From assembly GCA_021432655.1 (NCBI GenBank), contig MU271644.1, forward strand, positions 1 through 35,968: a stretch of 35,968 bases of DNA, in the 5' to 3' direction. The notes beneath the pieces are model-generated. The model had not been told where the DNA came from, did not search any database, and worked only from the letters and a program-made list of their open reading frames with translations. Origin of the DNA: Atractiella rhizophila. Its lineage: Eukaryota. The translations under genes and the position numbers were made by a program. Positions 10,986-35,968 of this stretch are shown piece by piece (within the stretch, counting starts at the first letter, position 1; every line of letters starts with the position of its first letter).

Positions 10986-13900
10986 TTGTCAGTCGCAACA
11001 CAATCAGGAGAAAAAAAATTCAGTAACTATGATGACTCCACAGTAGGACTCTCTCAGTCTCAGTCAATCAACGACCCAACTTTACCACTTTCTCCAACTG
11101 AATCAGTCAACAATAATGTGACTTTACGACTTCCTGTTCCTGGAAGCCCATGGCGGCCCAACACCTTGAACCCCGCCTCACGCCTACGGACCAGAACGAA
11201 TGCATCATCCTCCTGCCGACCCACCTCCCATAACAAGCCCAGCCCCCGTGCCATTCCCTGGACTGGCGGTTCCAGACCACGCCGTTTGTCCCTTTGTATC
11301 CCTCTCTCAACACAGGAACGTACCATCGAGCATCTAAATTCGGCGTCAGCATCATCTCCTTTTTCACCGAGCTCAGATGATACAGAGCTTGAAGGCACAG
11401 GTCGCTGGATCAAGCCGGCAGATCGAAGGACGACGCGCGACGTTTCGTGGTATCCCGCATCCACTTACCAGTGTTCATCACCTCCGGCAGCAGTTAACCC
11501 CATCGATCCCTCTCCCTTGTGGTCTTGGAAGGAAAGGAACATTCCAGCAGACCAATGGGAGGAGTACCTTCTTCCGGGCATCAAGTTTTCGGTGTGCCCT
11601 AGCCTCAGCAACACGACTGTTTCCCCTGGAGATTTGATACACTGCCATATTCACCTGTCACCCCAACACGACGTCAGCGAGAATGAAAAGGTGGATATCA
11701 TTTTTTCTGGCATTAGCACCGTGGATGCAGAGTCGTGTGTCCGTCTCTTGCTTTTAACGATGAATGACTGATCGCTTTATGGGAAGCAGGCCAGAATACT
11801 ATACCTTTCTTCAGCTTACGAAATCAGTCATTCTGAAAGAACTCAAGCCGTTGCGCGAGTGGAGGTTTGAGTTCAAGGTCCCTCTTTATACGAACTGCGC
11901 TTGCCCTAGATCCAAAGTCCCCGTTCCAACGACATATCGAGACACAAAATTCAGCATCAATTATTCGATCCAGCTAAGGAGGAACAGATTCTTAGATGAG
12001 ATTTCGATACCTGTTATAGTACAACGAGGGGATCACGTCTTCGCGACGGCAACTGGATTGGTAGCGAATGGTGGAACAGATAGTCTCTGGAAGTGTGTAT
12101 GGGCCAGTGATCCGCGCCTCTTGACCTTCGCCAACCAAAGCCCGCCTGTTCCATTTGCTGAGGTAGGTTTTGTCTCCACTGATGGCTGTATGCCTATCCA
12201 TGCACTTACTGATACTCAATACCTAGCTCAGCTATCACATCTTTAGGCCCACCGGCAAAGCTTCGTCCACTACCATCTTCCTGAACTACTGTTTCTTGAT
12301 ACAACGTGACGATCCCGCTTACTCCCCAAACGAGGCGCTCAGCTCGCTCATGGAGAAACTTCAGATTTCATTGTCACGGCGGATACTAGGGAGAGGGGGG
12401 CAGGAGAGTAGAACAGTTTTACCAATTGAACAGCTATCATCGAAGGGAAGGAAAGTTGGCGTGGGAATTTCTGGCACCGACCAAGGCTCAGTCTGGACGA
12501 TTGAAGGGTGGATCGAGATCACGAAAGACGATCTTTTGATCTGGGATAGCTGCAATGCTGAAATGCAGGTACGCTACTCCAGTTAATCTTGCTGCATATG
12601 ATTGACTGTATCTTTATTAGGTGCTTCTATCCGCCCATTTATCTCATCCTGCCCTCTCTTATGGTATCACCATTGAGACCCCTATCGACGACTTCAGAGC
12701 GATCGAGGTCGATATACACCATGGCGTGTTCACTGAATTACCTTGCGATCGATCCTTTTACGTCCCCCTCAGCACATCAGAAATGAAGGCTCCCTCTCTA
12801 CCTCATATCCCTCAATCCCAACTCGCTCCACTTCCCAATACGGCATCTGTCTTTGATCGCAACACAGCGATACAGGCTTCAGCGAGTGTCCCCATTGGCA
12901 ATGCGCGGATTGGATCGAACGAGGATACTTATTCTCTTCATATCCGACACATCAAATCCTTTGAGTCATACAAATATGAAGACCTCAGTTCAGGTACATG
13001 TTTTGAATTCAGCCGTGACCTGTTCGTTCGTATGAGTCGCGAGCTACACACTCCAGTATCACCCATTTCAGTATCACCCACCCCAAGCTTTGATTCTTTC
13101 GAGGCGACTCCCAGCAATTCTGGTGCTGAATCTCGCCACGATCTCATAGAAATCTCTGATGATTCTACTCCCCACCGCAGGGATGTAGCTGGAGCTTTCA
13201 CTCCTGAATTCCGTTCGAGTGAATTTGCACAACTACATCATGAAAATCAGTCTGAGACTTCGGGGTCAACTTGGGATTCTCCGATTAGCGAGCATCAATC
13301 TTCACAACGATATCGTTTTGATTCTACAGAAGACCGCGCCGATACTCTTCCGGAAGAAAGCTGGCGTAAAGAGCAACGCATTAACCAAAGAGCGGAACCA
13401 GGGCCGTCTCGTTTGCCTCTCGATCTGGCTAAGAAACGGTCCCCAACGGCCCACTTTGCACCCATAACGTCAAGAATGTCAGCTTCGAGCCACGGCGCGC
13501 CGATCGATTCGTATACCATTCGACCGACAACACGAGACCCAATCGTAACCGCATCTGCGTTGCACTCTTCTGGCAACCTGCGTCCTACGGAAACGACGAC
13601 CCAACCCTTGAGATCGATCAGAGCCTCACCCCGTGGCGGAATGCTCTGCATCTACCCCATGCAGAAGGACCTGATCGGCTATTGGGATCACCAGAATCTG
13701 CGAATTGAGGGCAGGGCACCATCTTCGCCTTCAAAAGAATTCCATGACCCGAAAACGAGCAAAAAGCTAAATAAATGGACTGAACTCAGGTTTGATAAGG
13801 ATACATATGTGGAAGTTCGGTTGGATAACGTTACCGTTACTCCGTGGAGTAGGAATGGCCTTGGTGAGCCTTATTTTTTGAATGAAAACCAAATATCTGA

Positions 13901-14141
13901 TGAACTGTACAGAGTGGTTCAAAGGACAACTCTTGCACCTAGGTATGCCTTTCTTATTCCAGATTTTCACAGGAAATTGATGGTCCATTCAAAGGAAACT
14001 GTCAAAATCCGTCTTTCCGATTTTTTCTGGAACAGTTCGCAACGGACGATCCCAAAACCGAGCCTATTCTTGACGCGGATCCTTTCGTGCGTCCCATTAG
14101 AGCAAAGCAAGCTTTCTTCCTTTCCCTGTCCTTTAGCTTGA
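10986..14141 (+). CDS. Large multi-exon hypothetical protein (~1000 aa) with a possible arrestin-like beta-sandwich followed by Ser/Pro-rich disordered sequence; start not located
   Basis: ORFs 10986, 11764, 12296 and 12621 join in phase through short GT-AG introns (about 11735-11789, 12163-12226, 12568-12620). VSPGDLIHCHIHL..VDIIFSGIS..WRFEFKVP..VPTTY..FSINYSIQL resembles an arrestin N-domain (weak, by eye). Confidence 0.7.
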
Positions 14142-15266
14142 ACCTGATCATTGAGAAAAGGCAACATCTTGTTTCTGGAAAGTGCCACTGTCACGCTGGA
14201 CAGGAAAGCCTCATCAATTTATGTCGCTTCCAACTCGAAGCTAACAATGCAAAGGGCAAGGTAAAGCGAGAGGTTCGTGTTTCAACCTCGCCGTAAATAA
14301 GGCTACGCCTGAGTTGTCGACAGCGACGACCAACAAGGCAAGAAGAGGGGGAACGATCGAACTATGTGGAACCTCTTGCGTGTTCTTCGTAACCCAGGAA
14401 AGGTTATCCCGCAGGATCTGGCGAAACGACGGAAGAGCGAAAGAGGTCAACGGGAATGAAGGAGGAGAATGCAGAGGAATGGCGGGAGCAAGGAAGGAGA
14501 TTGTGAGAGGAAGTATCTGGACCATTTTCTAACTTGTGATCCTCAATATGCCAATGCAGTTTTTTTTTGTCTCCGGAGTCATTGTGCCCTACTGAGGATG
14601 TTCCGTCAGCGTAGACGCAAGCCACTTTGATCACCTTTCGCTCATGCGAATCCAACTGCGTAGTTTTGCTCACCCTTTCGTCCTTGTGGCCAACCTTTCA
14701 CAACAGTCAGAGAACAATAGGATTTAAGCGTTCGGTCGGTTTATGTATCCAAGAGGAGTAAGAGCATTTTTGTTCACTCCCTTCATTTGTGAGGGATCTG
14801 ATAAGTGCTCCCTGTCATATGTTTATTGGCTGGTACAACAGTGCACCACAGATCTACATGTAGATAAACAAACATGATTATTTCCTTGAGCTTCGACCCG
14901 TCGAGTAAGCGAACCTTTCGAACTGCTATGTCCAGAGACCCTGCTTTCTTCATATTGTTAAGTCGTTAATGTCAAGACAACCGTCGATACAGGGTATCAG
15001 GCTAAATAAGCTGCCTTTTACAAGTGGCGTAGAACATCTGATGAAGCTTGTCGGAGACCGGATTTGGCAACCCTGTGCGAGGATCGAGGATGGTGCAGAA
15101 ATATGTCAAGCATCTACATTACATTATGACATGCAGTTTTGTAGTAACGCGGGTTTATGTCAACACAAAGCACAGTCGCTCGTTTCATAGCGCGCAAAGC
15201 GTTCGTGGGGACTGCATAACCTTCACTTACCAGTTAGCAACCACTGGCCAAAGTCGCTTGCTCTGT

Positions 15267-15313
15267 GCAACCGTCATCATGAAAAGCTTAAATGACTGTG
15301 ATCAGCATCTGAT
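15267..15313 (+). repeat. Left terminal inverted repeat of the Plavaka element
   Basis: GCAACCGTCATCATGAAAAGCTTAAATGACTGTGATCAGCATCTGAT aligns with the reverse complement of the right end, GTAACCACCATCATGAAAAGCTTAACTAAC--TGATCAACAT-TGAT. Confidence 0.85.
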
Positions 15314-15590
15314 GGCTCCTGGCGCCTGACGACAACTGAGCCAGCGCTGACCAGGGCCTAGCGAGTTCTTCTCACTGACTGATAACCGTGATCAATCTGG
15401 TGAATCCTGACAAGGTACTGATCAGGAATTGGTCTGCACTGAACGTGTACTGATCACGAACTGGTCTGACGTGAACGTATTTGCAAGATAAATGTAATTA
15501 CAGTATATAGAATGCATTGAAAAACAGCAAAATGAAAGCTATCCATGTTCAAAAGCTAGATATTATGAAAGAGAGAGAAGTCAAGACAGC

Positions 15591-18500
15591 TCAGGAGAGA
15601 TTTTGAAACCGTAGGAATAGATCAGCCTCCGCAAGGTCATTAACATGATAAAGCCCATCGTCGACCGGATCTGGTTGAATATAACAGCTTCGAGCAATGT
15701 TTTCCGTCAGAATAAAGCTGAGTTGCTCTTGTCCTTGGAGAAGAGGCATGCCAGACAAGTAATGCCTTCCGACCCATTTATACTCACAAACTAATGCCAA
15801 CTGGAACTCCTTATCTTGTATTCGACAAGAAAGTAGACGGATGACGCGTCCAAAAGAGACCGTGTTGTCGTGGTCGCACAGAATGACGTCGTCGTAACGT
15901 GGTTTGCCGCTGGTCTGCCAGTTCGGATGAGAGCGAATGAGGTCTTCGTACTCTCTTTCGTCAACCCACGAATTAAATGAGCAGCGAAAGAGTGTATAAT
16001 CCGTAATCTGAGAGCTATGAGTAAGCGATGCTAGTGCGTAATCAATTGCAAGAATGGGAACGTACCGTGGACTCGTCAATCTGAGGTAGGTGCTCCTGGC
16101 GGACACGTATGGGGGTTGAAGGATTGATGTTTCGAAGGAGGAAGAGCCGGAGGTCATTAACCAAGTCTTGTCGAGTGTTGAATTCAACAGCAAGCTCGCG
16201 GAAGTAGGTTTGAATGTGAAAGCGTTTCGACGAGCCACAGAGACGGAGGTTGGGAGTATCACCATGAGTCCAAATCTGGCAACGATCCTCTTCACCACAA
16301 TCGAGCCGCAACGCATTGGCTGCATTGACGCGCCATTCGATCGCTCGAAGTTGCATCATCTCGAACGCACGCTGTGCCATCTGCGTTCAACTAAGACGAG
16401 CTTGAAGCTTGCACGGCACACACAACTCACCGATTCTTCAGTTTCGCCATCAACTGTACTGCAAATGGCCCGAGCAATTACGTGCTCTTTGAGAGGACGA
16501 TGAGCCCGCTCACCGTGTGCTGTGGTTTGATGGTCCAGCGTGCCGCCTTCACAGATCATGTCGACAAAATGCTGTGGTAGATGGCCTTTTGGAAACTTGG
16601 CTGACATACCAAAATGCTTGTGGAGTGTCTTCACCGCAGCATTGAGAAAAGATGCAATTAAAAAACTGAGGCGTACCTTGAGAGCAGCTTCAAACCACCG
16701 CAATTGGTGATTTCGAAGTGCTGAAATTCGATCGTCATCTTGAACGTGCATTTTCACAAGTACTTCGAAGGCAACCAATGCCCGCAATGCTGGAATGACC
16801 TCCTGCTCAATCTCTGCACGAAGGATGCTAATCATCCCAACAATTAAGAAACTGTACCCCAATAGTCAGTTTGGTGATGAGTAGAGAGAACAAAGAGATG
16901 ATTCACCTTCATTGCGTCTTGAATTTCCATGCAAGTAAAACTCTCGAGGTTAGTCAACCCACGTTTCGGAACATGACGCAAAGATCCATATGGTGGCAAG
17001 GAAATGAGGCTGGAATATGCAAGGACATGTCATAATTTGAGCTATAGAAAATGACAGAAACTCACTATGAATCAACCTGTTCCTTCTTTGCTGTTGAGAG
17101 GTTTTCGAAAAGCTTTTGCATGACATGGTCTTTATACAGTCCACCAAAGATGTGAGATACAATGGTCAATCCGCTCACATGCGGCAATACCTTCCTATTC
17201 TGGAAGCGGCTCCCGCCTAACTTGGAAGTGACATTGACCACTGTATACCTCACAACTCCCCCGTCTCTCTACACCTCTCCTGTCGGCTCCAAGCGCGTAC
17301 AATCGATCGGGAGAAGAAGGGAAGATAACCGCATGGTATCTTAGCCTTATCCAGAAGCTGGAAGGCAAGATCCGTCGATTCCCTGGTGAGCCTCGTTTGA
17401 TTCCCTTCAGCTTCCTCTTCGTTCCATGCTTTCAGATTATTCTATATTTCTATCTACTTATGTATTACGGGTTTTCCCACGATGTTGTTTGATCTTTTAT
17501 CCGATTCATTGGCCTATAAAAGAGGCCTCACTTGTTAATGTAAATTCATCTTATTCCTCATCATCTTACTTCGCACTCATAGCAGAAAGCGCGGTAAGAA
17601 TCGAGGTAAGTTCCCCGGGCCGTAGAAGCGCCCCTGTAAGATCCACTGTCTTATTTCTGAGACCAAATAGCTTGATAAGCGGCCCTGCACTTCAGTGTGG
17701 CTAGCATAAGCTGGTTCCTGTCTTTCCTTTTCGTTTAAGCTCTCATTCATTGATTGAGCATCCTAGTTTCTCGCTCTAATCGAGCTAAAGGAACTCGCTT
17801 TTGCAGTAGAGTCTCACAAAAGACATGCAAAGAGTCCGCTGCAATAGCCTGGTAGACATCGCTGCATTTTAAGCGACAGAAGGCAGACTGCTCAGATATG
17901 AGCATGAGCAATTAGATAGGGTTGCGACGTGCCTTTTCAGGGCGCAAAGATGATGTGCTTGTCAATTCCTTGACAGCTATGTTCATGCCTTCGGCATCTT
18001 TGGTGCGCTGGTATTGCTTAAGCTGACGTTGCGCTTGTTGCAAGCTTCTCTTTGGAAATTGTTTCGTGAGGTGGTGAAGGTGTGCCTTTGGAGCAAGGCA
18101 AATTGGACATTTGAACTCAGAATTGACGCCAAAGAGGAGGAGGAGGATATAGCTGGTGAATGATATTAGTACGAACACAGCAACTGTTGAAACGACCAAC
18201 AGTTCTGCTAAGTCAGCCTGCAGAAGGAATAGACGGGGGAAAATGAGCTTATCGAACTCATTTCCTACTCGAACCCTGAATCCAACTTGCTCATATTGTC
18301 TGATTTGCTTCAAAACGATTCCTATGACCTTGTGATAAACAGAGCGTCTGTACAGGCGAAAATTTTTGCTTTTCTTCTGCTGATCTGTAGCAGGAATCTG
18401 ATCTCTCATGAATCACTTTGACGAAGTAGTGTAAAATCAATTTACTTACTTCAGGCTGAAATCCAATTAGCTGGCACCCTCCTTTCCCATTTCCACTCCT

Positions 18501-19852
18501 TTCTCGCAAAGGGACATTCCCGAGCCACATATAGATCGGATGAACTGTTTTTTGTCCAAATTTCACCGCACTTGTCCCATCTGAGTACAAGATGATGGCG
18601 CCAACACAACCATCATGGTTAGGCAATGAATCCTGAGTATTTTCTACTTCAGTGCCTTCAATAATGAAGCATCTGGCAAGAATATTCACCTGAAACTTCC
18701 ACCAGCGTTTGGTTGTCCACAGTTCGTCGTAAACCCTCACTTTGTGGAAAGGTTGCTTGTCAGTCCCTTTGAACTTCTTGACAGGGTAGAATTGCATGTG
18801 CTGGCGAGTAGCATCGTCTCGGATCACTTCCTTCATGATATCGATTGGATCTCGAATGTAGACACGGTGTTGTATCGTTTGTCCCTCAAACTCGGCAGAA
18901 ATAATGTGTGATTGAAACTGTATGAGAATCAGTACTATCAGTATTGATATTTCAAGTTTGATGGAATCTACAAACTGCAGCTGTTACACTCATTTGATCC
19001 TTCTTGAGAGTTTGTCGAAGCTCCTTGAAGGAATTGAGTGTGAAGTTTGGAAGGCCGCGTTTCTTGAGGTTACGGAAGTGAGCAGTGATATCCCGCTGTG
19101 TCATTCCTTGGAAAAAGACGTGGGAAGCCATTTCGTAATCCACTTCACTCTTGAAAGGATGGAATGCTGGAATGCTGCCATTAATGTTGCTGCCCGCCCC
19201 TGGAGACTTCGATAGAATGTGAGGACGTGAGCAACTTGAAGAAAGGTATGAAGTGGAATCGGGATGCAAAACTTGGAAATAGTGGCCGCCTAGACCTTGA
19301 CGCAACTCTCTATCTAGCTCCTCCTCATCAGCTGAAGAAATATTAGGAGACTGTGGGGGATTAAGTAGAGGATCGCATGGCGTGAATTCCACGGCTGGTA
19401 GTAGAGAGTTCGAAAATTGATAATGTGGTGGCTGATTCAGAGGATCTCCTGACTCTGACTCCCAGTCATTTGGCTTTGTGCGAAGGGAATACACAGATTG
19501 ACCTACCTCCAAATTGTTCAATATCAGAATGGACATTCTCATTCACTTCTTCACCATGACTATCATTTGATTCGGACGTGTCGGACTCTCGGATATCCTT
19601 TGCTTCATCATTAAGCAATGTAGCTTTAGGCTGGATGAGTGAACTCACATCCTCAGAGCATCTTTCGACCACGCCTCCATCCACTCTTATGGATTTCCAG
19701 CCAGTTGAGCGTACAGTAGCTTGATGCTTGAGAGCTCGATGTTTTCTAATACCACCTCTTGCAAATGAATAAACATTGTGACAATCTGGACACTCCACTT
19801 TGCCAGCAGGCAGATTTTTGACCGCATTGGCTCTGGTATTCTGAGGTGCCAT
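15591..19852 (-). pseudogene. Plavaka transposase (N-terminal C2H2-like Zn finger), multi-exon, interrupted by a solo LTR
   Basis: CPDCHNVYSFARGGIRKHRALKH; RVYDELWTTKRWWKFQ; GAIILYSDGTSAVKFGQKTVHPIYMWLGNVP; CPICLAP; AIAADSLHVF|GGLYKDH; FPKGHLPQHFVDMICEGGTLDHQTTAHGERAH; HPNW...PRYDDV. These motifs are typical of Plavaka/CACTA-like transposases of basidiomycetes. Confidence 0.9.
17151..17818. mobile_element. Solo LTR (668 bp) inserted in the transposase coding sequence
   Basis: TGTGAGA...TCTCACA ends (TG..CA); 5 bp TSD AAAGA at 17146-17150 and 17819-17823; TATA-like TATAAAAG near 17515. Removing it plus one TSD copy restores in-frame LHVFGGLYKDHV. Confidence 0.92.
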
Positions 19853-20027
19853 GATAATTGGAGGCAGAGGGAAGGAAAAGAAGAGCTTGTTTATTATGAC
19901 GAGAAGGGAGACGCGTGGGCTGACGTCATGACGTCATTCTTGTTTACCCTCCCCATCATTTCCCGGGCCATAAAAACCCTGCTCGTACGAAAGACAGTCT
20001 CTCTCTCCATCTAAGCATTCAATCCAA
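19853..20027. promoter_or_regulatory. Putative bidirectional promoter with tandem CRE (TGACGTCA x2, 19921-19936) and MCB-like ACGCGT (19911-19916)
   Basis: 175 bp between the divergent ATGs at 19852 and 20028. Motifs were read directly from the sequence; their function is inferred. Confidence 0.55.
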
Positions 20028-22381
20028 ATGTCAGATCAAGAAAACATCACCAGCGGAAAGAATTACAAGGAGCTGTACAAAGCCTCGAAGCGACAGGTAC
20101 GTCATTTCTTCCTTCAACAAAGCAGGGAATAGACGATGTGTTCAGCGCAATGATGCACGTCAGGAGTTGTCATTGTTGCAAGAAACTGTAGCAAGAGCTG
20201 AGGACGATCAGCGAGCTTGGGAAGAAGAGCGTGCCCAGCTACGAGAAGAGCTCGAAGCCATGAAAGAACAGCTTCATGCAGATGAACCCCCTTCCAAGAG
20301 GCGCCGCTCGACGCGTGTGGTTCCTGCAGCACCTTCGAAACTTGCCAGACTCCAAGCCTATCGCGCTGGAAAGGCAGCTGTGCTGCTGTATCAACCATGG
20401 CCAATGATATTCGACAGTGTCTTTGCAAAGAGGTTAGAAGCTCCTGAATATCCTGAGGATGAGGAGTGTGAAATAGTATCTGACGATGAAGAGGTGGAGG
20501 AAGAAGAAGAAGAGCACGGTCAAAAGGAGAAACAGCAGAGGAATCATGAACGTGAAGTCCGGCGTATTTATCGGAGGTCAAATTTCTTCAAGTTCATTTT
20601 TGGGCGTCTACCGCCAGAGGCCGTCGAATGGCACAGTAGTGCGTGGTTTCAACGCGAGGTATTGTCCTTTGCGCAAATCTCATATTGCATACTAAAGGAT
20701 ACCAGGTGCTACGAGGTCTTGCTGAACAGAAGAGCGACAATGCCCATCGAATGCGCAATCACCTTGCCGACATCTTTGACATCAAGTCATCATCCTCAGC
20801 TGAGCTCAAGTCTCCAAAAACGAGGCAGAGAGACGAAGAGATTCAACAGCATATCGAGGATGAAAGTTATATATATGCCCCTCATGATATCCCTATGCAA
20901 TGCCGCGATTCAACCCGAAAAGCCATTAAAGCAGCTGCCTATCTTCGCTCCCACGCTCTTTTCAAGGTGAGTTTTTGTTTTGTCACCTAAATATTGATTG
21001 AGGGAAGACACAGATTGCCCGTATCATTATTCATGGCCCAGCCGCATTAAATAGTGCGAACAACCGTGCACGAGGTGCGACGATCAGCAGCCAGCTGTCA
21101 ATCCGTCAAATAACCATCCCCTTAATCGCTTATTCATCTACGCTGGTCCGTACTGTTGTTTTATACACTCAACAAGACAAGATGCTAACTCTCCTGGAAG
21201 GCTCGATACACCCTAAGCAGCGATATAGCATTTTCTGCCGAGGGGACAGCACCAATCAAACCAGGTACAGAAGAGACTAATAATTATCGTGACCACTACC
21301 ATAGAACGGTCACCCTGCTGTCGACTCTCGAGGAGCAACACAAAGATAAGTACAAGGATCTGCTTTCTCTGTGGAATAGAGAAGTTTTCCCTCGGGACGA
21401 CGATGAAGCTGATAGCTCTTGGGCTTCATCCCATGGCCATGGTACCAATGATGCAGACATTTTGGAAGGTTTTGATATCACCTTTGATATCGAATGGCAC
21501 AGTAGTGCGTGGTTTCAACGCGAGGTATTGTCCTTTGCGCAAATCTCATATTGCATACTAAAGGATACCAGGTGCTACGAGGTCTTGCTGAACAGAAGAG
21601 CGACAATGCCCATCGAATGCGCAATCACCTTGCCGACATCTTTGACATCAAGTCATCATCCTCAGCTGAGCTCAAGTCTCCAAAAACGAGGCAGAGAGAC
21701 GAAGAGATTCAACAGCATATCGAGGATGAAAGTTATATATATGCCCCTCATGATATCCCTATGCAATGCCGCGATTCAACCCGAAAAGCCATTAAAGCAG
21801 CTGCCTATCTTCGCTCCCACGCTCTTTTCAAGGTGAGTTTTTGTTTTGTCACCTAAATATTGATTGAGGGAAGACACAGATTGCCCGTATCATTATTCAT
21901 GGCCCAGCCGCATTAAATAGTGCGAACAACCGTGCACGAGGTGCGACGATCAGCAGCCAGCTGTCAATCCGTCAAATAACCATCCCCTTAATCGCTTATT
22001 CATCTACGCTGGTCCGTACTGTTGTTTTATACACTCAACAAGACAAGATGCTAACTCTCCTGGAAGGCTCGATACACCCTAAGCAGCGATATAGCATTTT
22101 CTGCCGAGGGGACAGCACCAATCAAACCAGGTACAGAAGAGACTAATAATTATCGTGACCACTACCATAGAACGGTCACCCTGCTGTCGACTCTCGAGGA
22201 GCAACACAAAGATAAGTACAAGGATCTGCTTTCTCTGTGGAATAGAGAAGTTTTCCCTCGGGACGACGATGAAGCTGATAGCTCTTGGGCTTCATCCCAT
22301 GGCCATGGTACCAATGATGCAGACATTTTGGAAGGTTTTGATATCACCTTTGATAATGACGAGGCGGGCATTGAAGAGTAG
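20028..22381 (+). CDS. Transposon-borne hypothetical protein: coiled-coil N-terminus plus a DUF6698-like C-terminal domain, duplicated in frame
   Basis: Exons from ATG 20028 (introns 20097-20163, 20659-20705 and others) give ...YLRSHALFK|IARIIIHGPAAL...ITIPLIAYSSTL|ARYTLSSDIAF...YRDHYHRTVTLL...KDLLSLWNREVFP. This resembles the xTPxxIAYxxxxxRFALSS...LLxWWNxxVF pattern of DUF6698-like fungal proteins. Stop TAG 22379-22381. Confidence 0.75.
20624..22355 (+). repeat. Tandem duplication, 2 x 866 bp (20624-21489 and 21490-22355)
   Basis: Copies look identical by eye, including introns; ORF-track entries repeat with an offset of 866 (20643 vs 21509, 21289 vs 22155). Confidence 0.97.
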
Positions 22382-24642
22382 AAATTGATCTCTTGAAAAT
22401 AAGATGTGTCCAAGTCAATGTAAATAGACTATTCTTATCCATACTCTTATTGCATGTACAGATTATTATTCCTTCCCACCAAATAAAAACTGAGAGAGAA
22501 GTTTGCAGCAGAACAAAGAAAAGATTCTGGACCCATCTTACCCACCTCTCCAGCGATGGAATGAAAGAACGTACAAGTTTGCTTGCATAGGCCCTGCGGC
22601 CACACCACCTCATTCCACACTGTTTACTCGAAGGACATTTTAAGGCATGGGCGGATCGGGACAGCCTCTTGGCAGAGGACTGAAAGCGCGGGAAAGGGGA
22701 TGGAATTGCAGTAAGAGAGAGCAGTACATCATATGTTCTGTTCCAAAGCAAAAGGAGTCGGTTATAAAAGTGCCAACTTGAAAAGAAGTGAAAATGTCAA
22801 GTTAGTCTAGAGGCGAGCGGCTGCTTTCAGCATAGTGCTTGAGTTCAATCCAGAGGAATTAGCAGGTACAATGCGAACTGTTGAGTATCGGACTGCCTCA
22901 CAAGACGGTACACAGATAACAACATATTTACGCCTTCGCTATCGCATTCAACCATTTAGAATAAGTGCAATAAGAGAGCGTACCGCTTTGAATATTACTT
23001 GCCCTCATTCCTGCATGTTGCTTCCACACACACTCTGATACTCCTGCTTCAAGCTCAACCTGTTTGTGACATGGTCGCCATCGAGTCTGGCAGCAACAGT
23101 GGGAGACCTAGTCTACATGTCCGTAACAGAGAAATGTATAACTCCGCTCCGCTTTCCACGTTGACCCTGGCATGCGAAGAAAACAGCAGACTTTGGTGGA
23201 TGTTCTTCAATCCACTGATAAAACGACTGATTTGAAAGACCGAAGTCGGATATGGGGTACCTACCCTCGGGCAGTTGGAGGTCACCTGATTGAGCAGGGT
23301 CCCCTACTACTTGAGCCACGTGATCCTCTCGAAAATCATGATGTAAGAATTCCGGCCGCTGGTGGCAAATCAAGAACCTGTCACCTTTTGCGAAGTGCAG
23401 AAGAACCAAGAACCTCCTCGAACTTCAACACATACATTCAACGACCGGTGGCCCTCCTTCTCCATGCTTCCAACTCTCCACACTCCAGATCGCGCACTGT
23501 GTGTTCTGTAAGAATCAAACCTGGTTCCCACAGTTAGTAAATAAGTGCTGGACGCCTGGGCACTAGTGATTTGGGCCAACAAAGAAAAATGAAGGTAAGC
23601 AGTAATGCTCAGGTTGAAGAGAGAAGGGGTCGTGACAGAAGTGCATGAAAGCTCACTTTTGAAAGAGTGATATTGCCACAGGAAGTTCATCATGCTCATA
23701 AAACTTTCAAGTTTCCTGGTTGTCTGCGCTGCAGTTCATCAAGGGATGCGGGACGGAAGGAGGGGCAAGGGAATGTGAGAAGGGGAGGAGAGTGGGATAT
23801 TCCTGCATTGGTTTTACAGACATAAGTGGAGGGCTCCCAATTCATAGAGCTTTTGTACGCTCTTCCTTCTACTTTCCACTTTGCAATCCTTTCCACGGTG
23901 ATGACTCCAATCTGATATGATGACATGGGTGGTAGAGCAGGCCCTCAACTTCCTCTTACATGCCGCAGTATCACGGTCTCAATACAATTCGCCAACCTCC
24001 CTTCCCACCTGTGACCATAAACGAGCGTACGTTCGAACAGGAAGGACTCTTTCCGGCCTCAGCAACTCATCTCCCCTTCCATCCCTCACTCTGGAACAAC
24101 CCAGCTTCCAAGCACATGTCCCGCAGTCTACAACATCGAACAGATGTGTAGACGACTTCCAGCTGCCCTTTCGTTGAGCTTACACTTATACCGCTCCGCT
24201 TCCATCATTCGGTCGAACGTCCCCTTTGCCTCCTATTTTCATTTCTCTCGCACGATATGTCCAAGGTGGGGTTTGTGAGTCTGTTCCTGTCTCTTCATAG
24301 CCTATCGCATTATGTGCAATGGATACTCTGTTGTATTCTAAGTGCGACCGAACCAAAATGAAGCGCCTGATTATGAAATATTCTCCACCTGAGACCTAGC
24401 TGATACCTTCATATCAGACTTTGATCCGCCTCTGCTCACAACGCTCTATGCAGTGATCACCAACTGATACCACGAAATATATTTCATGATATACGTCTGT
24501 TCACAATGCTTTGTTACATGTTCACTGCCTGAAATGATTCCCTAAGTCGTCTGATGACCTTCTGATGACATGTTTTCAGACTATCGTATTGCCTGACTAC
24601 GTGGTGATCAGCTATGCAAACCCTGACAAACCTGATGGACTG

Positions 24643-24686
24643 ATCAATGTTGATCAGTTAGTTAAGCTTTTCATGATGGTGGTTAC
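24643..24686 (-). repeat. Right terminal inverted repeat of the Plavaka element
   Basis: Reverse-complement match to 15267-15313; the core positions are symmetric (15275 pairs with 24678). Confidence 0.85.
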
Positions 24687-25406
24687 TGTGCAGCGCATAA
24701 TGATGTCTATGCATGATCTTCCCCTGCTTTCAGCATTGTAAGCGTTCTGCAAAGTGGCCAGTACGATGGTGCAGATCCTTTGCAGGTGCAACATTTGCGG
24801 ACTGCTGCTCGACAGTATCAGCAGTATTGCTTGATGTTGACACTTCTCTCATTGCTCTTCCCGTCTAACGCTGCAAAGGCCATATCGCTTTGTCATTTAC
24901 CGAATGCTCCCTCCCGTCGAGCTGCACTTGGTGAATGTAACGCAGTTGGTCCCTACCCCCATATTCTTTGCAAATGTCCTGCAACGTTCAACCCCCATCG
25001 ATGATCTGCTTGAGAAAGCCTATTGAAACAAATCCCTGCAGACACGGTGTCGTGAAGCAAGCTTACCAGTAACGTGATCAAAGATTCCGCCAAGCGAAGC
25101 GAGCACGACCTACTGTCTAGCGCCACGGTTGGACCATACCTAAGATACTCGAGATCCAAAATTGCAGCGAATGTCCAGATGCAGACACAGACCGCCACCA
25201 GGGTCATTCGCCAGAGCCAATTGCAGATGGCAAATTGGCCCTGCTGCTTTGCGAACTTCTTTTAGGATGCCCATTTATATTTCTGCACATGATGGAGAAG
25301 TAACGAGGATTTCATTACTCATGAACACTAGTCCAACGCTCGAGGCCGCACAATGGGTTGTGAAGCTGGTGAAGGCTGATCACACTAAGTATCTATGGGA
25401 CAGCAG

Positions 25407-26912
25407 TAGGGATGGCTATCGTACCGTATCGTCGTCTCAGCACCACTTCCGGACGGTACGTGTCCTGTCTCGGCTCGTATCGTACCGTAACAAATTTCCA
25501 TTGTCAGATACGTACGAGTACGGCGGAAAACGGGAGAATACGACGGATTACGGGTTATATGGCATATAGCAATTTCATCACGTCTTAAGTGTCACGTGTC
25601 ACACTTTCGTCGCTTCTGACCAGCTCTGCAACGTCATCCTCCAATGTCATCAGCTCTATTTGCAAACTCTGTAAGCTGAGATTTCCAAAGGAAGCGCGCA
25701 ATGTGATCCTGAGCATGATAAGGTCGTGTATCTCAGTATCTGGACAATGACAACAAATACCTATGGTATCTGTTAGGGCTGACACTATCTGCGGTCGCCG
25801 ACAGGCGATGCGTCTGTAGTGGAGGTAAACCTAAGTGAATAGTATGGCATGAGGAGACTAACCTGTAGTGGAGGTAAACCTAAGAGAATACTCTGAGGTC
25901 ACCACCACTACATCTCGATGTATATATACATATGTAAAAGCACTGCCATAAACTGTATCATAAGTTTCTTGAAACATGTAAGATAGCTAGATCAGGAAAG
26001 CAATAAAAGGAAAACTCGGAAATAAGACATACTAAGCAGTACAAGTGAGAAAGGACAATAAAGCAATAATTGAGACGGTGCAGACCGGCGAAATGTTTAA
26101 GGTTTGCTGAGCGGCGATTCGTGTGAGACAGGGGAAGGCGGCGATCAGCGAGAACGTGAGCAAAGCGGCGATGGGCAGGCGCGTGGTCCTATGGCATGGT
26201 AAAGTAGGTCACGTGACTTCAGATGGTGCATTTCGGTAATGCGTAGGGGCAAGCCTGACAGTATCACGAGCACCAGAGAAGATGTGCTTGACTCCCACAG
26301 CACAACATATAGCACTGAAAAACCTGAAAACAAGTGAGAACACTTTGGGGAGACACGTTCTGAAATAGTCAGAATATCTCGAGCCAGAAAAGACAAGTTG
26401 TGCAAGTTGTGCTTTGACTCTTACTTCAAAAGGAAAGTGGATCAGCTCCCATGCCAGGGTTACATGCTTGAAGAGATGGTTAATTTCCTTCATTACTCTA
26501 TTTTCATCCGCTCCCGCCTTTGGACCATGACCGATAGAAGCGAGATAATCAAGAATGGAGAGAGTCGAAGACATTTATATGCTTGAGGAGAGGAAGGATG
26601 TGTTATCGGTGCTCGTCTTGTTTCATAAGCTGCAACCTCAATGTGTCAGTTTTGTTGAAGAATCTAAGAACGCTGAAAAGGAAGCACGGACCATCGCCTC
26701 CACTGTCCTCCTTTGTAACCCATTGCTCCAGCTGCAAATTGCCTTCCGCCACCGTAACCTGTAATATGACGGATTTTCTGGATGAAAACGGACGGGACGT
26801 GGAGGATGGCGTATCGTATCGTATTGTCCCGAAGAACAGTCAAGCAGGACGGACGGTTACGGTACACGTATCGGACACGTACGTCTGGGACTGTGCGATC
26901 CGATTGCCACTA
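25407..26912 (-). mobile_element. Non-autonomous hAT-family element (1506 bp deletion derivative)
   Basis: 8 bp TSD GACAGCAG (25399-25406, 26913-26920); TIRs TAGGGATGGCTATCG vs TAG---TGGCAATCG; subterminal CGTAC/CGTAT/GGACGG repeats at both ends; internal transposase remnant. Confidence 0.88.
26209..26500 (-). pseudogene. Degenerate hAT C-terminal dimerisation-domain fragment
   Basis: NLSFLARDILTI ... AVGVKHIFSGARDTV in different frames, matching the hAT dimerisation consensus LxxLARDILxIPxSxVxVERxFSxxRD. Confidence 0.75.
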
Positions 26913-29945: not shown

Positions 29946-31929
29946 TTAAGCATCCTCCGTCCAATCCTTCCACAATCTAGCCACCTTTTCCTCAGCCCAC
30001 TTCCGCTCCCCCTTCTCTCCCACCTCATTTCTCCTCTCCCACACCTTCAGCACCACCGGATGATAAGCGCACAGTCCCAGCTCCCCTACGATCCAAAACG
30101 CAAGACGCCAAGGAAAGATATCGACCGTGAGGTACAACGCGACGGTTACAATGAACACAAGGGCGATGATGGGCTCCGGAGGACGAGAGGCGAGGTTGGG
30201 GACGATGAGGTCGAACGCGGCGCAGTAGAGGCCGAGGAGGTTTTGGATGTTCTGGAGGTTGGCGAGGTAGTCGATGGAACCTTCAGTGGGAGGTGCTAGT
30301 GGGTGAGGGGTCGGTGTGGTTGGAGAGATCGGGTTCAGGGCTGGTGCAGCCGGCATGGGAGAGGAGGGTGGAGTGCTGTTTTGGCTGGAGGCCGAACTGG
30401 AAGGCTCTTGCGTCGTTGGTGGTGGTGCAAGAGTGGACGACGAAGTTGTTGTCGTCGGCGCCGACGCCGGTTTGGACGCAGAGGAGACTTGAGATGTTTT
30501 AGACGGAAGGGATAGGAAGAGAGCTAGGAGCAGGGTCGTCGGAAGAGCAAATAAAAGCTTAGGCTTGTAACCTTCAGTAATTTCTTAGGTTGATGAACTA
30601 CAGCAGCAATGAAATGACGCACAAATTAAGCTCCATAGAACAGAAACGAAGATTGCTCGTGATGGTTGCTCCCATGTTAAGATTTGAAGAATGGTATCCT
30701 GTAGTGCGAAGAGAGGGCCAGATCGCTGAATGAACCTATTCGTACGCGGAAGAGGAAGAATGTCAGTACTGAAAAATGCAAAACAAAGCGCTTCAGGAGG
30801 CTTGCGAATGGTCCCACGAGATCCAGTCCTAGAAACTCTACGAAATCACCAACAAGTCTTCACGATAATGGCTCTGGGAAGAGAAAGGTACAACGTCCAA
30901 GATATGGAACACTCTCACCAATCAGAGATAGAAGGACCTCCAGGAACAGGTAACAATGAACCCACAGATGAAACAAACTGCATGATAACGCAGACCACAA
31001 GGATCAACTGCCAACTTGGATACTGCGCACTTCGCAATCTCATCCAGTGAAGCAGGAAGAACGAGTCGAATCAGGATGACCATCTGTACATTCGAGAGCA
31101 AGTACCGAGACCCAAACTTATCAAGTAGAGATGACTTGAACAAGATGGCATCCCATAAAGATTACAAATGAAGGAATACGCTTTCGATACGGAAAGGATG
31201 AAACTGCGCCGTATTAATGAGCAGCCATCTGATTGTGCTGTCCGATATTTTCGTAAACTAGTAGAAATTATCGGAGAAATACCTCCAGGTAAGTGGGGTC
31301 TGTAGGCACTATCAGATTTTCTGTTCAACTGACTACACGCTCTCTGCCCAACTCATGAGTATGAGCTGTATTCTGGAAGGACAATGTTAGACTCTCAATG
31401 CTACGCCGTATGTCCTGATTGGGAGCATCTGCAACTGCCCTCTTGGATATTTCGTGTAACGAGCGAATCAGAGCTGTTGATCTGCACAATCGAGAGCACT
31501 TGATGGCCCTCTGCTTTCAAGAAGAGATGAGCTGAACGAAACCTGCTCTTTCAAGTTTACAAACGACAATGAATATCAATAAATCGTCTCAGTCGAACCT
31601 CAGCATTTCACCCACGTTATGGCCACAACAACAATATGTTGTGTCCCTCCCAAACCCAAAGGTCCAAACCAAAGCCGCCAGACCAGAACCCAAACACTCA
31701 CCTCGTAAAATTAGCGCTAGTAGTCTGCAAACTAAGTGCCTCCTTTCCCTTCACCACGCTCCCCGCCGGCGGAAACTCAAAGTCGTCCTCCACGCTCTCC
31801 TGCACGATCCTCACAAAGTCAGAGACGAGCTTCGCGCGTATGTCTCCCTCTTCGCGGCGTATGGCGGAGTGCGTGGAAGGTGCGGGTCGCGAGGAGCGTG
31901 CCGGAGGGTGGGAGGAGGTCGGAGGCCAT
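29946..31929 (-). CDS. Pex24p-domain integral membrane peroxin (Pex23/28-32-like); start uncertain
   Basis: KEALSLQTTSANFTR|FIQRSGPLFALQDTILQILTWEQPSRAIFVSVLWSLIC|YKPKLLFALP...EGSIDYLANLQNIQNLLG...IFPWRLAFWIVG..AYHP. Introns at 30736-31701 and about 30572-30622. Using ATG 31929 needs one frameshift. Confidence 0.82.
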
Positions 31930-32116: not shown

Positions 32117-33701
32117 ATGTCAAAAACAAACACCCTAAAGCGGGCTCCTTCCTCGGTATCCTCCGGGGGAGCTCAAAAACCGCCGTAGCACCATCGACGA
32201 ATCGGCGCGCTGAAGAGGGGGAGGACGAGATGGGCGAGTTTGAGGATGAGTGGGAGGACGAGTTCGAGGAGGAGGACATCATCAGTAACCCCGGACAGCG
32301 ATGCGGAGCGGGAAGCAGAGGAAGATGAGCGGATGGAGAACTGTGGCTGAGGAAGCTGAGAAGATGAAGATCGACGGTGCGTCTTCTGAAGAAGAAGAAG
32401 AAGAGGAGGAGGAGGAGGAAGAGGTCGTGGCGCACTTGCCGGGTCAGAAATTGGAGGAGGGCCATGAACTTAAGCCGGATATGGCTGTCTATCCGCTTTT
32501 GCACTCTATGTCTCTCAAATGGCCTTCACTTTCGTTCGATGTCCTTGCAGACGGCCGGGGAGACGAGAGACGCAAGTTTCCTATGGACGTCACTGTCGTA
32601 GCCGGACACAGGCAGGCGTGAGAGGAGAGGATGAAGTGGTTGTCATGCGATGGGAAGGTCTGAGTCGAACAGACAAAGGTTCGTCATGTTCCCTCACAGC
32701 CCACGCTCCTTTCTTTGGCAAAATTGACATTGATGGGGAGTATTGCAGATCNNNNNNNNNNNNNNNNNNNNNNNNNNNNNNNNNNNNNNNNNNNNNNNNN
32801 NNNNNNNNNNNNNNNNNNNNNNNNNNNNNNNNNNNNNNNNNNNNNNNNNNNNNNNNNNNNNNNNNNNNNNNNNNNNNNNNNNNNNNNNNNNNNNNNNNNN
32901 NNNNNNNNNNNNNNNNNNNNNNNNNNNNNNNNNNNNNNNNNNNNNNNNNNNNNNNNNNNNNNNNNNNNNNNNNNNNNNNNNNNNNNNNNNNNNNNNNNNN
33001 NNNNNNNNNNNNNNNNNNNNNNNNNNNNNNNNNNNNNNNNNNNNNNNNNNNNNNNNNNNNNNNNNNNNNNNNNNNNNNNNNNNNNNNNNNNNNNNNNNNN
33101 NNNNNNNNNNNNNNNNNNNNNNNNNNNNNNNNNNNNNNNNNNNNNNNNNNNNNNNNNNNNNNNNNNNNNNNNNNNNNNNNNNNNNNNNNNGCACATGAGA
33201 GCGATGTGAATGTTATGAGTTGGAACAAACATTCGACTTATTTGCTCCTCACCGGTGGAGACGAGGGAGGAATCAAGGTGTGGGACTTTAGGAACTTTCA
33301 ATCGTTCGTCCTCCTCCCTCCTCTCCCTCACCCCTATCACCACAAATACGATTCTAATTAACGATGTGCATAGAAAAACGAACACCCCGACCCCCGTCGC
33401 CTCGTTCTCATGGCACACAGCTCCCATAACGTCGATCGAATGGCACCCGTCCGAAGATTCCTGTTTCGCCGCCTCAGGAGCCGACGACCAAGTGACGCTG
33501 TGGGACCTTTCAGTGGAAATCGACGAGGAAGAATCGACCGCAAAAGGCCAGAAAGGGTTGGAGAAGGTCCCGCCGCAATTGTTGTTCATACATCAGGGAC
33601 AGAAGGAGGTCAAGGAGATACATTGGCACCCTCAGATTCCGGGAGTTGTGGTATCGACTGCGGTGGAGGGTTTTAATGTTTGGAAGAGCATTAGTATCTA
33701 G
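32117..33701 (+). CDS. RRB1: Ribosome assembly protein Rrb1 / GRWD1 (glutamate-rich WD40 protein), spans the N gap, apparent frameshifts in the 5' part
   Basis: [46 protein letters not shown](TQA); [89 protein letters not shown]. Confidence 0.93.
32752..33190. other. Assembly gap (439 N)
   Basis: Run of N inside RRB1. Confidence 0.99.
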
Positions 33702-34766: not shown

Positions 34767-35968
34767 ATGGTCTTTCTCTCTCCCATGCTCAACAGCATCT
34801 CCATCCCCCATCCCCACCCGCCACACTCCCACTCGCTCCCTCCCCCAACCTCCCTCTCGCCCCCTAGGCAATACTACGTCCTGCCCCCCAACGCCCACTC
34901 CTCCATCCCCCACCCTCACTCTCTGACTCAAGGAGGCACCGTCCCACCTCCGTACATGAAGAAGGACAACCTCCATCACCTCGTCGACTCGTTAGGCGAC
35001 GGGCCCGTCTTCCTGAATACGTCGCAGCAGCAGTATTCGTCGCCTGGTGGTCAGCAGGAACCGCCAATGTATTTCGCGACGCAGAATGCGCTGGGCATCA
35101 AGGGTATAGGGACGGACGTTGGGGAGATGTCGCTTGGAGAGGTGGGTGGAGGTGGGACGAAGAGGAAGTTTCAAGTTGAAGGAGAACAGGACGGAGGTGA
35201 GGAGGAGATGAGCGGGATGGGGAGGAGGAAGCGCGGAAAGTCCATTGGTCAGCAAAACATCAATTCTGAGGTTCGTTTTTGTTGATTGCTCGCTGATCAT
35301 TTGCTGATGTGTATGATGCTGTGATGATCGGAACAGAAAAGGAAGGAACAGAACCGTGCGGCGCAGAGAGCGTTCAGGGAGAGGAAGGAGAAATACGTGA
35401 GGGAGTTAGAGGACAAACTTGGATTTGCGAATTCGGAGAATAGGGAGATGAAAGAGTACATCAACGAGTTCGTCCTCATCCCTCCTCCTCTTTTCCTTAG
35501 TGTTCTGATGCTGATGTCGATGTCGATGTGGCAGTCTGGAGAACGAGGTGGCGGCGCTAAGGAACAAAATGACGCTGTTGCAGCAGCAACTTCCTTCCTT
35601 CCAAGGCACCAATCAGCAAAGACAATCCCCTCCTTTCCATCCTCCATCTCAACCAACAACTCAATCCCAACTCCAACCTCAACCGCAACCTACATCCCAA
35701 TCCCCACCTCAACCTCAGCAACACATCCCAGCGGCAACACAACAACATCCTGACCTCAATTCGTCTACCAACTTAGACACCTCCGTCCCCATGACAGCGA
35801 CGACGGATGAACTCTCAGGATCAGGCTCAGGTTCCGAAGGGATGGAAGGAATGGAAGCCATGGAGGGGATGGATGGGATGGATCTGAGTCTACCCTCCAT
35901 CCCACTCGACTTCGACCTCGACACCATCTCTCCCTCCTTCCTCTCCCTCCCCCTCCCTCCCCTCTTCT
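34767..35968 (+). CDS. YAP/AP-1-like bZIP transcription factor, 3' end outside the window
   Basis: After intron 35271-35336: KRKEQNRAAQRAFRERKEKYVRELEDKLGFANSENREMKEYIND|LENEVAALRNKM. NxxAQxxFR is the YAP-subfamily basic-region signature. Gln/Pro-rich tail is open to the window end. Confidence 0.9.

Follow-up and report, generated by a model that had tools for sequence, protein, structure and literature searches.

A likely PlavakaB-type DNA transposon copy with a divergent DUF6698 gene in Atractiella rhizophila

Which group of DNA transposons does a broken Plavaka transposase gene in Atractiella rhizophila belong to, where exactly does its element end, and is the DUF6698 family gene that lies head-to-head with it a part of that element? 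These questions are raised by the contig MU271644.1, analysed here as a whole over its 35,968 bp and referred to below as the window; the host belongs to the Atractiellomycetes within the Pucciniomycotina. Positions 15275-24678 are likely to represent one copy of a PlavakaB-type DNA transposon, a member of the CMCT clade related to EnSpm/CACTA, which is flanked by the target site duplication (TSD) GT, has decayed, and carries the DUF6698 gene as its divergent partner. The original prediction, made from the letters of this DNA, had announced a fully bounded Plavaka transposon, and all the parts that it listed, namely inverted repeats, a direct repeat at the flanks and two genes in head-to-head orientation, are present in the sequence. 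The element is indeed bounded by terminal inverted repeats (TIRs), but it is not intact, as it holds a nested solo long terminal repeat (LTR), a 1-nt frameshift and an 866-bp tandem duplication.

Terminal repeats and the identity of the element

The affiliation with Plavaka is given by the domain PF18759, matched by open reading frames (ORFs) of the window at E values of 6.7e-19 and 3.8e-09, and by the annotated protein P0009 with 76.6 bits against a gathering score of 26.3. The longest inverted repeat in 14500-25500 pairs 15269-15298 with 24655-24684 (30 nt, 87%). It contains a perfect 17-nt core, CATCATGAAAAGCTTAA, whose only two occurrences in the window are 15275-15291 (+) and 24662-24678 (-); for this core at up to three mismatches, 0.17 chance matches are expected, and two matches were reached in 1 of 100 shuffles. 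With gaps allowed, the similarity between the arms extends over about 40 nt. The ends of the element thus read 5'-CATCATGAAAAGCTTAA..TTAAGCTTTTCATGATG-3', with GT directly abutting both CATCA..TGATG ends in the one copy read.

These tips carry the termini that define PlavakaB, 5'-CATCA..TGATG-3': the element starts with CATCATG at 15275, where the perfect core begins, and finishes with CATGATG at 24678. In Suppl. Table S3 of Hiltunen 2021 (PMC8290104), 20 of the 23 Plavaka families of Marasmius oreades start with CATCA and 3 with CACCA, while a 2-bp TSD is entered for 19 and the field is blank for 4. The passages on termini in Kojima 2025 (PMC12730594) describe PlavakaA as having TGT..ACA ends and a 2-bp TSD, PlavakaB as having CATCA..TGATG ends and a 2- or 3-bp TSD, and the ends of the clade as mostly CA..TG. 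Of the PlavakaB insertions displayed in Fig. S2 of the same work, 11 were compared; all of these start with CATCA and end with TGATG, as in CATCACGAAAAC..GTTTTCGTGATG, and their duplications are mostly 2 bp long. The ends, the TSD and the split of Plavaka into A and B are therefore already in print, so that the present copy does not define the ends and TSD of Plavaka, as had been claimed for it (Hiltunen 2021, PMC8290104; Kojima 2025, PMC12730594, as far as their tables and passages on termini go).

Read contigs provide further evidence on the right end. In run X1, which is DNA-like and holds 90% of the query words, the contig of the right flank has flank-level depth (124), shows 0 differences from the window and starts at 24649, 30 nt ahead of 24679. 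Because 24649 starts the first 31-mer containing base 24679, this beginning points to another copy that is common with the window up to 24678 and diverges from 24679; an element end at 24685/24686 would predict a contig start at 24656/24657 instead. The assembly word length is presumably 31, and the read-mapping output speaks of 31-letter words. The left X1 contig ends at 15328, which shows just a private difference near 15298, the site of the 2-nt indel between the arms, and is uninformative on the left end. An inner boundary at 15275-24678, 9404 bp in length and with GT as the TSD, is preferred for three reasons: the CATCA..TGATG signature already in print, the rule of CA..TG ends and the break of the X1 contig at 24649. 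We hold this boundary to be quite probable.

Two other assignments were tried and rejected. EnSpm/CACTA in the strict sense does not fit, as the ends are CATCA (or CAACC/GCAACC on an outer boundary weighed below) rather than CACTA, and a 3-bp TGT repeat is found only at that outer boundary. In a PlavakaA reading with TGT..ACA ends, the right end has no ACA in register.

The DUF6698 gene and its possible role

The gene opposite the transposase proved to be a true member of PF20414, firmer than the "DUF6698-like" wording first given to it. With a cut-off of 23.7, its product P0003 scores 124 bits, and the paralogs P0004 and P0007 score 51.2 and 36.8 bits; individual exons in the window reach no more than 15.9-24 bits, which is why the gene had seemed merely DUF6698-like. 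In its single-unit form, it has five exons and encodes 429-431 aa, while it is annotated with 660 aa (KAH8916513.1, P0003). The 175-bp spacer between the two divergent genes is presumed to be a bidirectional promoter. The term "DUF6698" has 0 occurrences in 8.4 million full texts of the literature.

The predicted linkage between Plavaka transposases and DUF6698 genes is borne out within the genome of A. rhizophila, in which 11 DUF6698-like models (P0003-P0008 and P0015-P0019) and 6 Plavaka models were found, the latter from a search among proteins of at least 404 aa, with shorter Plavaka models outside that search. Judged by consecutive GenBank protein accessions, 4 of the 6 Plavaka models have a DUF6698-like neighbour, and 4 of the 11 DUF6698-like models lie beside a Plavaka model (Table 1). 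In the three pairs beyond the window, the transposases share 74, 66 and 48% identity with the window copy and the DUF6698 proteins 83, 62 and 54%, in the same rank order. Full-length open DUF6698 paralogs of 403-420 aa persist at 27-54% identity, and distant relatives occur in Schizophyllum, Clathrus, Ceratobasidium and Rhizoctonia (22-35% identity). Because of the adjacency in four diverged lineages, the matching divergence ranks and the open full-length paralogs, the DUF6698 gene is, on sequence grounds, a conserved and co-inherited part of the element rather than a chance neighbour. That it encodes a dedicated accessory factor, as the original prediction had it, would be a reasonable inference from this linkage.

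The subterminal regions suggest what such a factor may act on. The window has 17 copies of TGATCA, a palindromic hexamer, with 4 sites in the first 350 nt of the element, 4 in the last 350 nt, 0 in its 8.7-kb interior and 9 outside it; two of the left sites sit in a 32-bp tandem repeat at 15415-15478. Subterminal arrays of this kind serve CACTA elements as protein-binding sites. Motifs of the TGATC type recur near the ends in several of the consensus starts displayed in PMC12730594. The number of subterminal units differs between copies, as an X3 contig skips 65 nt (15361-15425) beside the 32-bp tandem repeat.

A TnpA-like role is favoured because of the analogy with two-protein CACTA elements and the presence of subterminal repeats, and we put it forward tentatively: the DUF6698 protein could act as an accessory factor, either in recognising the subterminal repeats or in pairing the ends. 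In such a scheme, a family transposase supplied in trans would bind the TIRs and the subterminal repeats, the DUF6698 protein may bind the subterminal repeats or pair the element ends, and the transposase would then excise the element and join it into a 2-bp staggered cut. A broader proposal, in which DUF6698 would be the ancestral dedicated second component of Plavaka in both basidiomycete subphyla, TnpA-like, binding TGATCA-type repeats and pairing the ends for the transposase, is by analogy conceivable and, taken as a whole, rather improbable.

The structure of the protein was examined on the paralog P0004, for which an AlphaFold2 (AF2) model built on a 13-sequence alignment reached a mean pLDDT of 58.5 and a pTM of 0.42. 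According to the alignment and this low-confidence model, residues 3-68 form a long N-terminal helix and the C-terminal domain is all-helical; the protein also has an acidic run and the basic stretch PPSKRRRS. No Pfam family besides PF20414 lies above threshold in the DUF6698 protein, and its Atlas neighbours are DUF6698 clusters of Basidiomycota and, weakly, DUF6532. A complex prediction for P0012 (residues 1-585) with P0004 returned "no answer", which counts neither for nor against binding. Four observations weigh against the DUF6698 gene as a working partner. When the P0004 model was compared with the PDB by Foldseek, no entry matched at E<=0.001, the best E being 1.2, and no DNA-binding motif could be recognised in the protein. 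Moreover, for 7 of the 11 DUF6698-like models the set shows no Plavaka neighbour, the Plavaka search having covered proteins of at least 404 aa, and both the orientation of the genes and their placement inside TIRs were read for the window copy alone.

Slightly less probable than an end-binding partner, and on balance doubtful, is the alternative that the gene is selfish cargo or encodes a host-interaction factor, acting on chromatin or against silencing in the manner thought of for TET/JBP or VANC-type proteins. Plavaka lineages do carry cargo that takes no direct part in cutting, namely TET/JBP in fungi (in the passages on this point in PMC12730594) and PAG1-3 in red algae (in those of bioRxiv 10.1101/2025.02.11.637652), and a long acidic run without a recognisable DNA-binding fold would suit such a protein, as would the 2 of 6 Plavaka models that lack a DUF6698 neighbour in the set. 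However, the tight divergent pairing on a shared 175-bp spacer is consistent with a core component, as are the divergence ranks, which match over 48-83% identity, and the subterminal repeats imply that some repeat-binding protein exists. Linkage and subterminal repeats together do not decisively separate a cargo from an accessory role.

Alternative ends and the decay of the copy

A different placement of the ends was also considered, in which the element runs from about 15267/15268 to 24685/24686, has the ends GCAACC.. or CAACC.. and is flanked by the TSD TGT (3 bp) or CTGTG (5 bp), so that an Atractiella Plavaka lineage would carry 7-8 extra terminal bases and a TSD longer than that of published PlavakaB. 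It is an unlikely arrangement, though one with several coincidences in its favour. The heptamer CTGTGCA is directly repeated at 15263-15269 and 24686-24692, and when pairs of positions are drawn at random from the window, their 14-nt flanks have a 7-mer in common in 0.45% of cases and a 5-mer at equal offset (0-9) in 1.1%; moreover, 5 of the 8 positions outside CATCA still pair as inverted matches (2.8% by chance). TSDs in the CMCT clade range from 2 to 5 bp, according to the part of PMC12730594 that treats them. On the other hand, the perfect TIR part starts 7-8 nt inside these outer ends, and the outermost 7 nt contain 3 mismatches, including the terminal base (C vs T), beside a perfect 17-mer, which reverses the usual gradient of conservation, and CA..TG would be found at one end only. 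The Plavaka ends compared from the tables and figures of PMC12730594 and PMC8290104 place CATCA/CACCA at the very tip, and the X1 flank contig starts at 24649 and not at 24656-24657. The imperfect inverted repeats and the TGT/CTGTG repeat first described thus remain, the latter within the 7-nt CTGTGCA, whereas the ends GCAACC/GTAACC were probably misplaced by 7-8 bp.

Several points nevertheless speak against the inner boundary and the PlavakaB reading. The outer CTGTGCA repeat, the equal-offset 5-mer and the outer inverted matches would each be improbable in plain target DNA. A flush 2-nt repeat such as GT is by itself weak, being expected by chance in 6.3% of cases, the ends were read directly from one copy, and it is from the ends alone that the PlavakaB assignment would follow. 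The contig-break argument assumes a 31-mer assembly and no private variant at 24679. Finally, an empty-site joint across the whole element, expected as ..GCAACCGTGGTTAC.. under a 2-bp TSD and as ..GCTCTGTGCAGCG.. under a 5-bp TSD, was absent among the 15 listed of 25 read-contig joints (four runs). Loose contig ends at the element tips were likewise absent among the 20 listed of 105, with run X4 contributing 3 records. A metagenome scan with the 17-nt core returned at least 118 loci, and in none of the 118 did the match to the window exceed 26 nt; such loci match by chance, and no further copy was obtained. When empty sites were rebuilt with 2-, 3-, 5- or 7-bp duplications, no junction-spanning ORF of more than 96 codons appeared under any of them, so that a host reading frame across the site is uninformative.

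The target implied by the inner boundary, GCAACC-GT-GGTTAC (15261-15274 and 24679-24692), is nearly palindromic: to either side of GT, symmetry holds at 5 of 6 positions. Among six published PlavakaB insertions checked by eye, like symmetry was seen in one, PlavakaB-1_SCH, with GACATC-AA-GATGGC (Fig. S2 of PMC12730594). A symmetric target may explain part of the coincidence in the outer repeats.

The PlavakaB-type copy with these inner ends carries three lesions, two of them in the transposase gene. This gene is annotated only as a 532-aa N-terminal model (KAH8916512.1, P0009), which stops ahead of the LTR. About 10 introns are present in our model, of which 6 were seen as CT..AC or CT..GC joints in spliced contigs of runs X3 and X6; the remaining ones were inferred from GT-AG sites and the alignment with paralogs. 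With the LTR and one extra base bridged, the transposase reads 1032 aa and ends where the paralog P0011 ends. It contains an N-terminal CxxC..HxxxxH finger, and all 6 aligned sequences share a CxxC at model residues 523-526, amid invariant D/E columns; no conserved H(3-4)H was located in this 6-sequence alignment.

The solo LTR in a transposase exon is recognised by its TG..CA ends with a short inverted repeat, by its 5-bp TSD and by its absence from other copies. Contigs of X1 and X3 join 17145 to 17819, that is, without the LTR, and the proteins of four paralogs (P0010, P0011, P0013 and P0014) align straight across the site. The LTR family looks very abundant, its summed contig depth in X1 being about 13,000 against about 130 in unique flanks (~100x), where contig depth is not a copy number, as the tool itself cautions; many loose contig ends fall in the LTR at 17385, 17625, 17768 and 17818. 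The second lesion is the extra base in a T run. The LTR-bridged frame stops at residue 672 with this base and is open to 1032 aa without it. Of the 1228 depth units of X1 at 16850, 825 belong to contigs that are one base shorter there, and about one third agrees with the window. We infer that the present copy is now non-autonomous.

The third lesion lies in the DUF6698 gene. The three introns in each unit of the 866-bp duplication sum to 149 nt, so that 717 nt, or 239 codons, are duplicated in frame, and it is because of this in-frame duplication that the annotated protein has 660 aa and two DUF6698 stretches. An X1 contig has the single-unit form, with the joint 20623->21490. If it did not arise in the assembly, the duplication must be very recent. 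The element would measure 7865 bp if the 866-bp duplication and the 673-bp insert of LTR plus TSD were removed. That the duplication, and possibly the 1-nt frameshift too, arose in assembly or sequencing is the least probable of the alternatives considered: the units are 100% identical, the sole long X1 contig listed over the duplication is of the single-unit form and the frameshift lies within a homopolymer run, but perfect tandem repeats are collapsed by a de Bruijn assembler anyway, the X1 depth over the duplication is ~2.7x that of the flanks and a single-unit contig can derive from other copies, the bin holding the unit junction has a depth of 11.3, and contigs with about a third of the depth at 16850 match the window base.

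Table 1. Features of the element in the window and Plavaka-DUF6698 pairs in A. rhizophila
Feature	Position	Strand	Basis or comment
PlavakaB-type DNA transposon copy (likely)	15275..24678	.	9404 bp; CATCA..TGATG ends matching published PlavakaB, and contig break at 24649
Left TIR	15275..15315	+	17 nt perfect, then imperfect with 2-nt indel
Right TIR	24638..24678	-	Inverted-repeat comparison
Left TSD copy GT (proposed, 2 bp)	15273..15274	.	Sequence; flush 2-nt repeat by chance 6.3%
Right TSD copy GT (proposed, 2 bp)	24679..24680	.	Sequence
CTGTGCA direct repeat, left copy (alternative boundary)	15263..15269	.	Contains TGT and CTGTG of the original prediction
CTGTGCA direct repeat, right copy (alternative boundary)	24686..24692	.	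Sequence
Left subterminal repeats	15299..15478	.	4 TGATCA sites; 32-bp tandem repeat at 15415-15478
Right subterminal repeats	24454..24656	.	4 TGATCA sites
Plavaka transposase gene, broken	15591..19852	-	PF18759 76.6 bits; spliced contigs; paralog mapping
One extra base in T run just after intron acceptor, shifting the transposase frame	16849..16851	-	Frame model and contigs
Nested 668-bp solo LTR in transposase exon	17151..17818	.	TGTGAGA..TCTCACA ends; TSD AAAGA at 17146-17150 and 17819-17823
Divergent intergenic region	19853..20027	.	175 bp between start codons at 19852 and 20028
DUF6698 family gene	20028..22381	+	PF20414 124 bits, 2 stretches; exon model; tblastn mapping
866-bp tandem duplication, first unit	20624..21489	+	100% identity
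866-bp tandem duplication, second unit	21490..22355	+	100% identity
About 2.1 kb with no recognisable coding capacity	22382..24453	.	ORF list; Pfam
Pair P0009/P0003	KAH8916512/13, 35,968-bp contig (window)		Adjacency verified by mapping
Pair P0012/P0004	KAH8929751/50, 193,560-bp contig		Same-sized contigs, consecutive accessions
Pair P0011/P0005	KAH8921525/24, 77,535-bp contig		Same-sized contigs, consecutive accessions
Pair P0013/P0015	KAH8916241/42, 33,630-bp contig		Same-sized contigs, consecutive accessions

Between the DUF6698 gene and the right subterminal repeats, none of the 7 ORFs of 22344-24278 that were scanned had a Pfam hit at E<=0.01. Run X6, which is RNA-like in that its other contigs are spliced, has near-identical contigs over 23035-23216, 23403-23591 and 24015-24289, where no ORF exceeds 131 codons; the region 23035-24289 could correspond to an untranslated or antisense transcript or to a missed gene with small exons.

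Outside the element, a 506-codon open frame with no Pfam match lies to the left at 12621-14138 (+), and X3 contigs cover 14318-14576 with 1 difference, which implies transcription of the left flank or, failing that, its presence in organism B. In the right flank, another repeat starts at about 25405 (25405-25692), where the X1 depth rises from 124 to 1914 and X3 has loose ends at 25407; an X1 contig joining 17822 to 25405 has a 22-nt side and probably reflects a brief match by chance. Farther right in the window lie ordinary host genes, with a Pex24p-like peroxin fragment (29949-30584, -), WD40 repeats (32474-33698, +) and a bZIP domain (35328-35750, +). Assembly gaps, seen as runs of N, are located at 2218-2242 and 32752-33190, the second within the WD40-repeat gene region.

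Comparison with known systems and significance

Plant En/Spm elements of the CACTA type produce the transposase TnpD and the protein TnpA by alternative splicing of one transcript, and are characterized by subterminal repeats, CACTA ends and a 3-bp TSD. The copy described here resembles them in its related transposase clade, its two element-borne proteins, the clustered subterminal repeats at both ends and the short TSD. In contrast to En/Spm, its ends are not CACTA, its TSD is probably 2 bp rather than 3 bp, and its two proteins come from divergent genes instead of alternative splicing. No similarity between DUF6698 and TnpA was detected by Pfam or by fold search.

The closest likeness is to PlavakaB (PMC12730594) and to the Plavaka families of M. 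oreades, MarorPlavaka (PMC8290104), in what their tables and figures give. Common to them and the present copy are the PF18759 transposase, TIRs that measure tens of bp, motifs of the TGATC type close to the ends and an autonomous size class of several to 13 kb; the proposed 2-bp duplication GT of the copy would be a further likeness. The CATCA..TGATG ends are followed in each by a G/A-rich run, which here reads CATCATGAAAAG and in published elements CATCACGAAAAC, CATCAGGAAA and CATCAGCAAAA. The copy differs from them in its Pucciniomycotina host, in T as the sixth base and in having no TET/JBP gene. The Plavaka families described in the consulted parts of Kojima 2025 (PMC12730594) were reconstructed from Agaricomycotina; the name Atractiella has 0 occurrences in its supplement, and the searched passages of that paper make no mention of accessory or second proteins such as DUF6698.

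The giant Plavaka elements of red algae, as portrayed in the relevant passages of bioRxiv 10.1101/2025.02.11.637652, likewise combine a transposase with conserved accessory genes that lie within the element and whose functions are partly unknown. Unlike the present copy, they measure 17-19 kb and carry three genes, PAG1-3 (methylase/SET, ParB-like/2OG oxygenase), whereas here a single gene of a basidiomycete-restricted family is found. Within that family, the Pfam DUF6698 (PF20414) of Basidiomycota, the Atractiella clade is distant from the Agaricomycetes members (22-35% identity), and the present copy has the domain twice.

What is new in this locus is the host subphylum, the occurrence of PlavakaB-type ends beside a DUF6698 gene, and the linkage of Plavaka and DUF6698 genes in four pairs of a single genome. 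As regards the ends and the TSD, the copy adds only a host outside Agaricomycotina. It also illustrates the decay of such an element, by the insertion of an LTR element with later recombination between its LTRs, by a frameshift and by the duplication of an internal segment in frame. In mushroom genomes, Plavaka elements have a noticeable share, and they account for about one third of one red-algal genome, according to the figures given in PMC8290104 and bioRxiv 10.1101/2025.02.11.637652. If DUF6698 were the ancestral TnpA-like component, a missing mechanism would be supplied for a whole DUF family and for a large class of fungal transposons. If the DUF6698 protein is an end-binding or regulatory partner of the transposase, this would explain the subterminal repeats, give a name to a DUF family and offer a handle on reconstituting Plavaka transposition.

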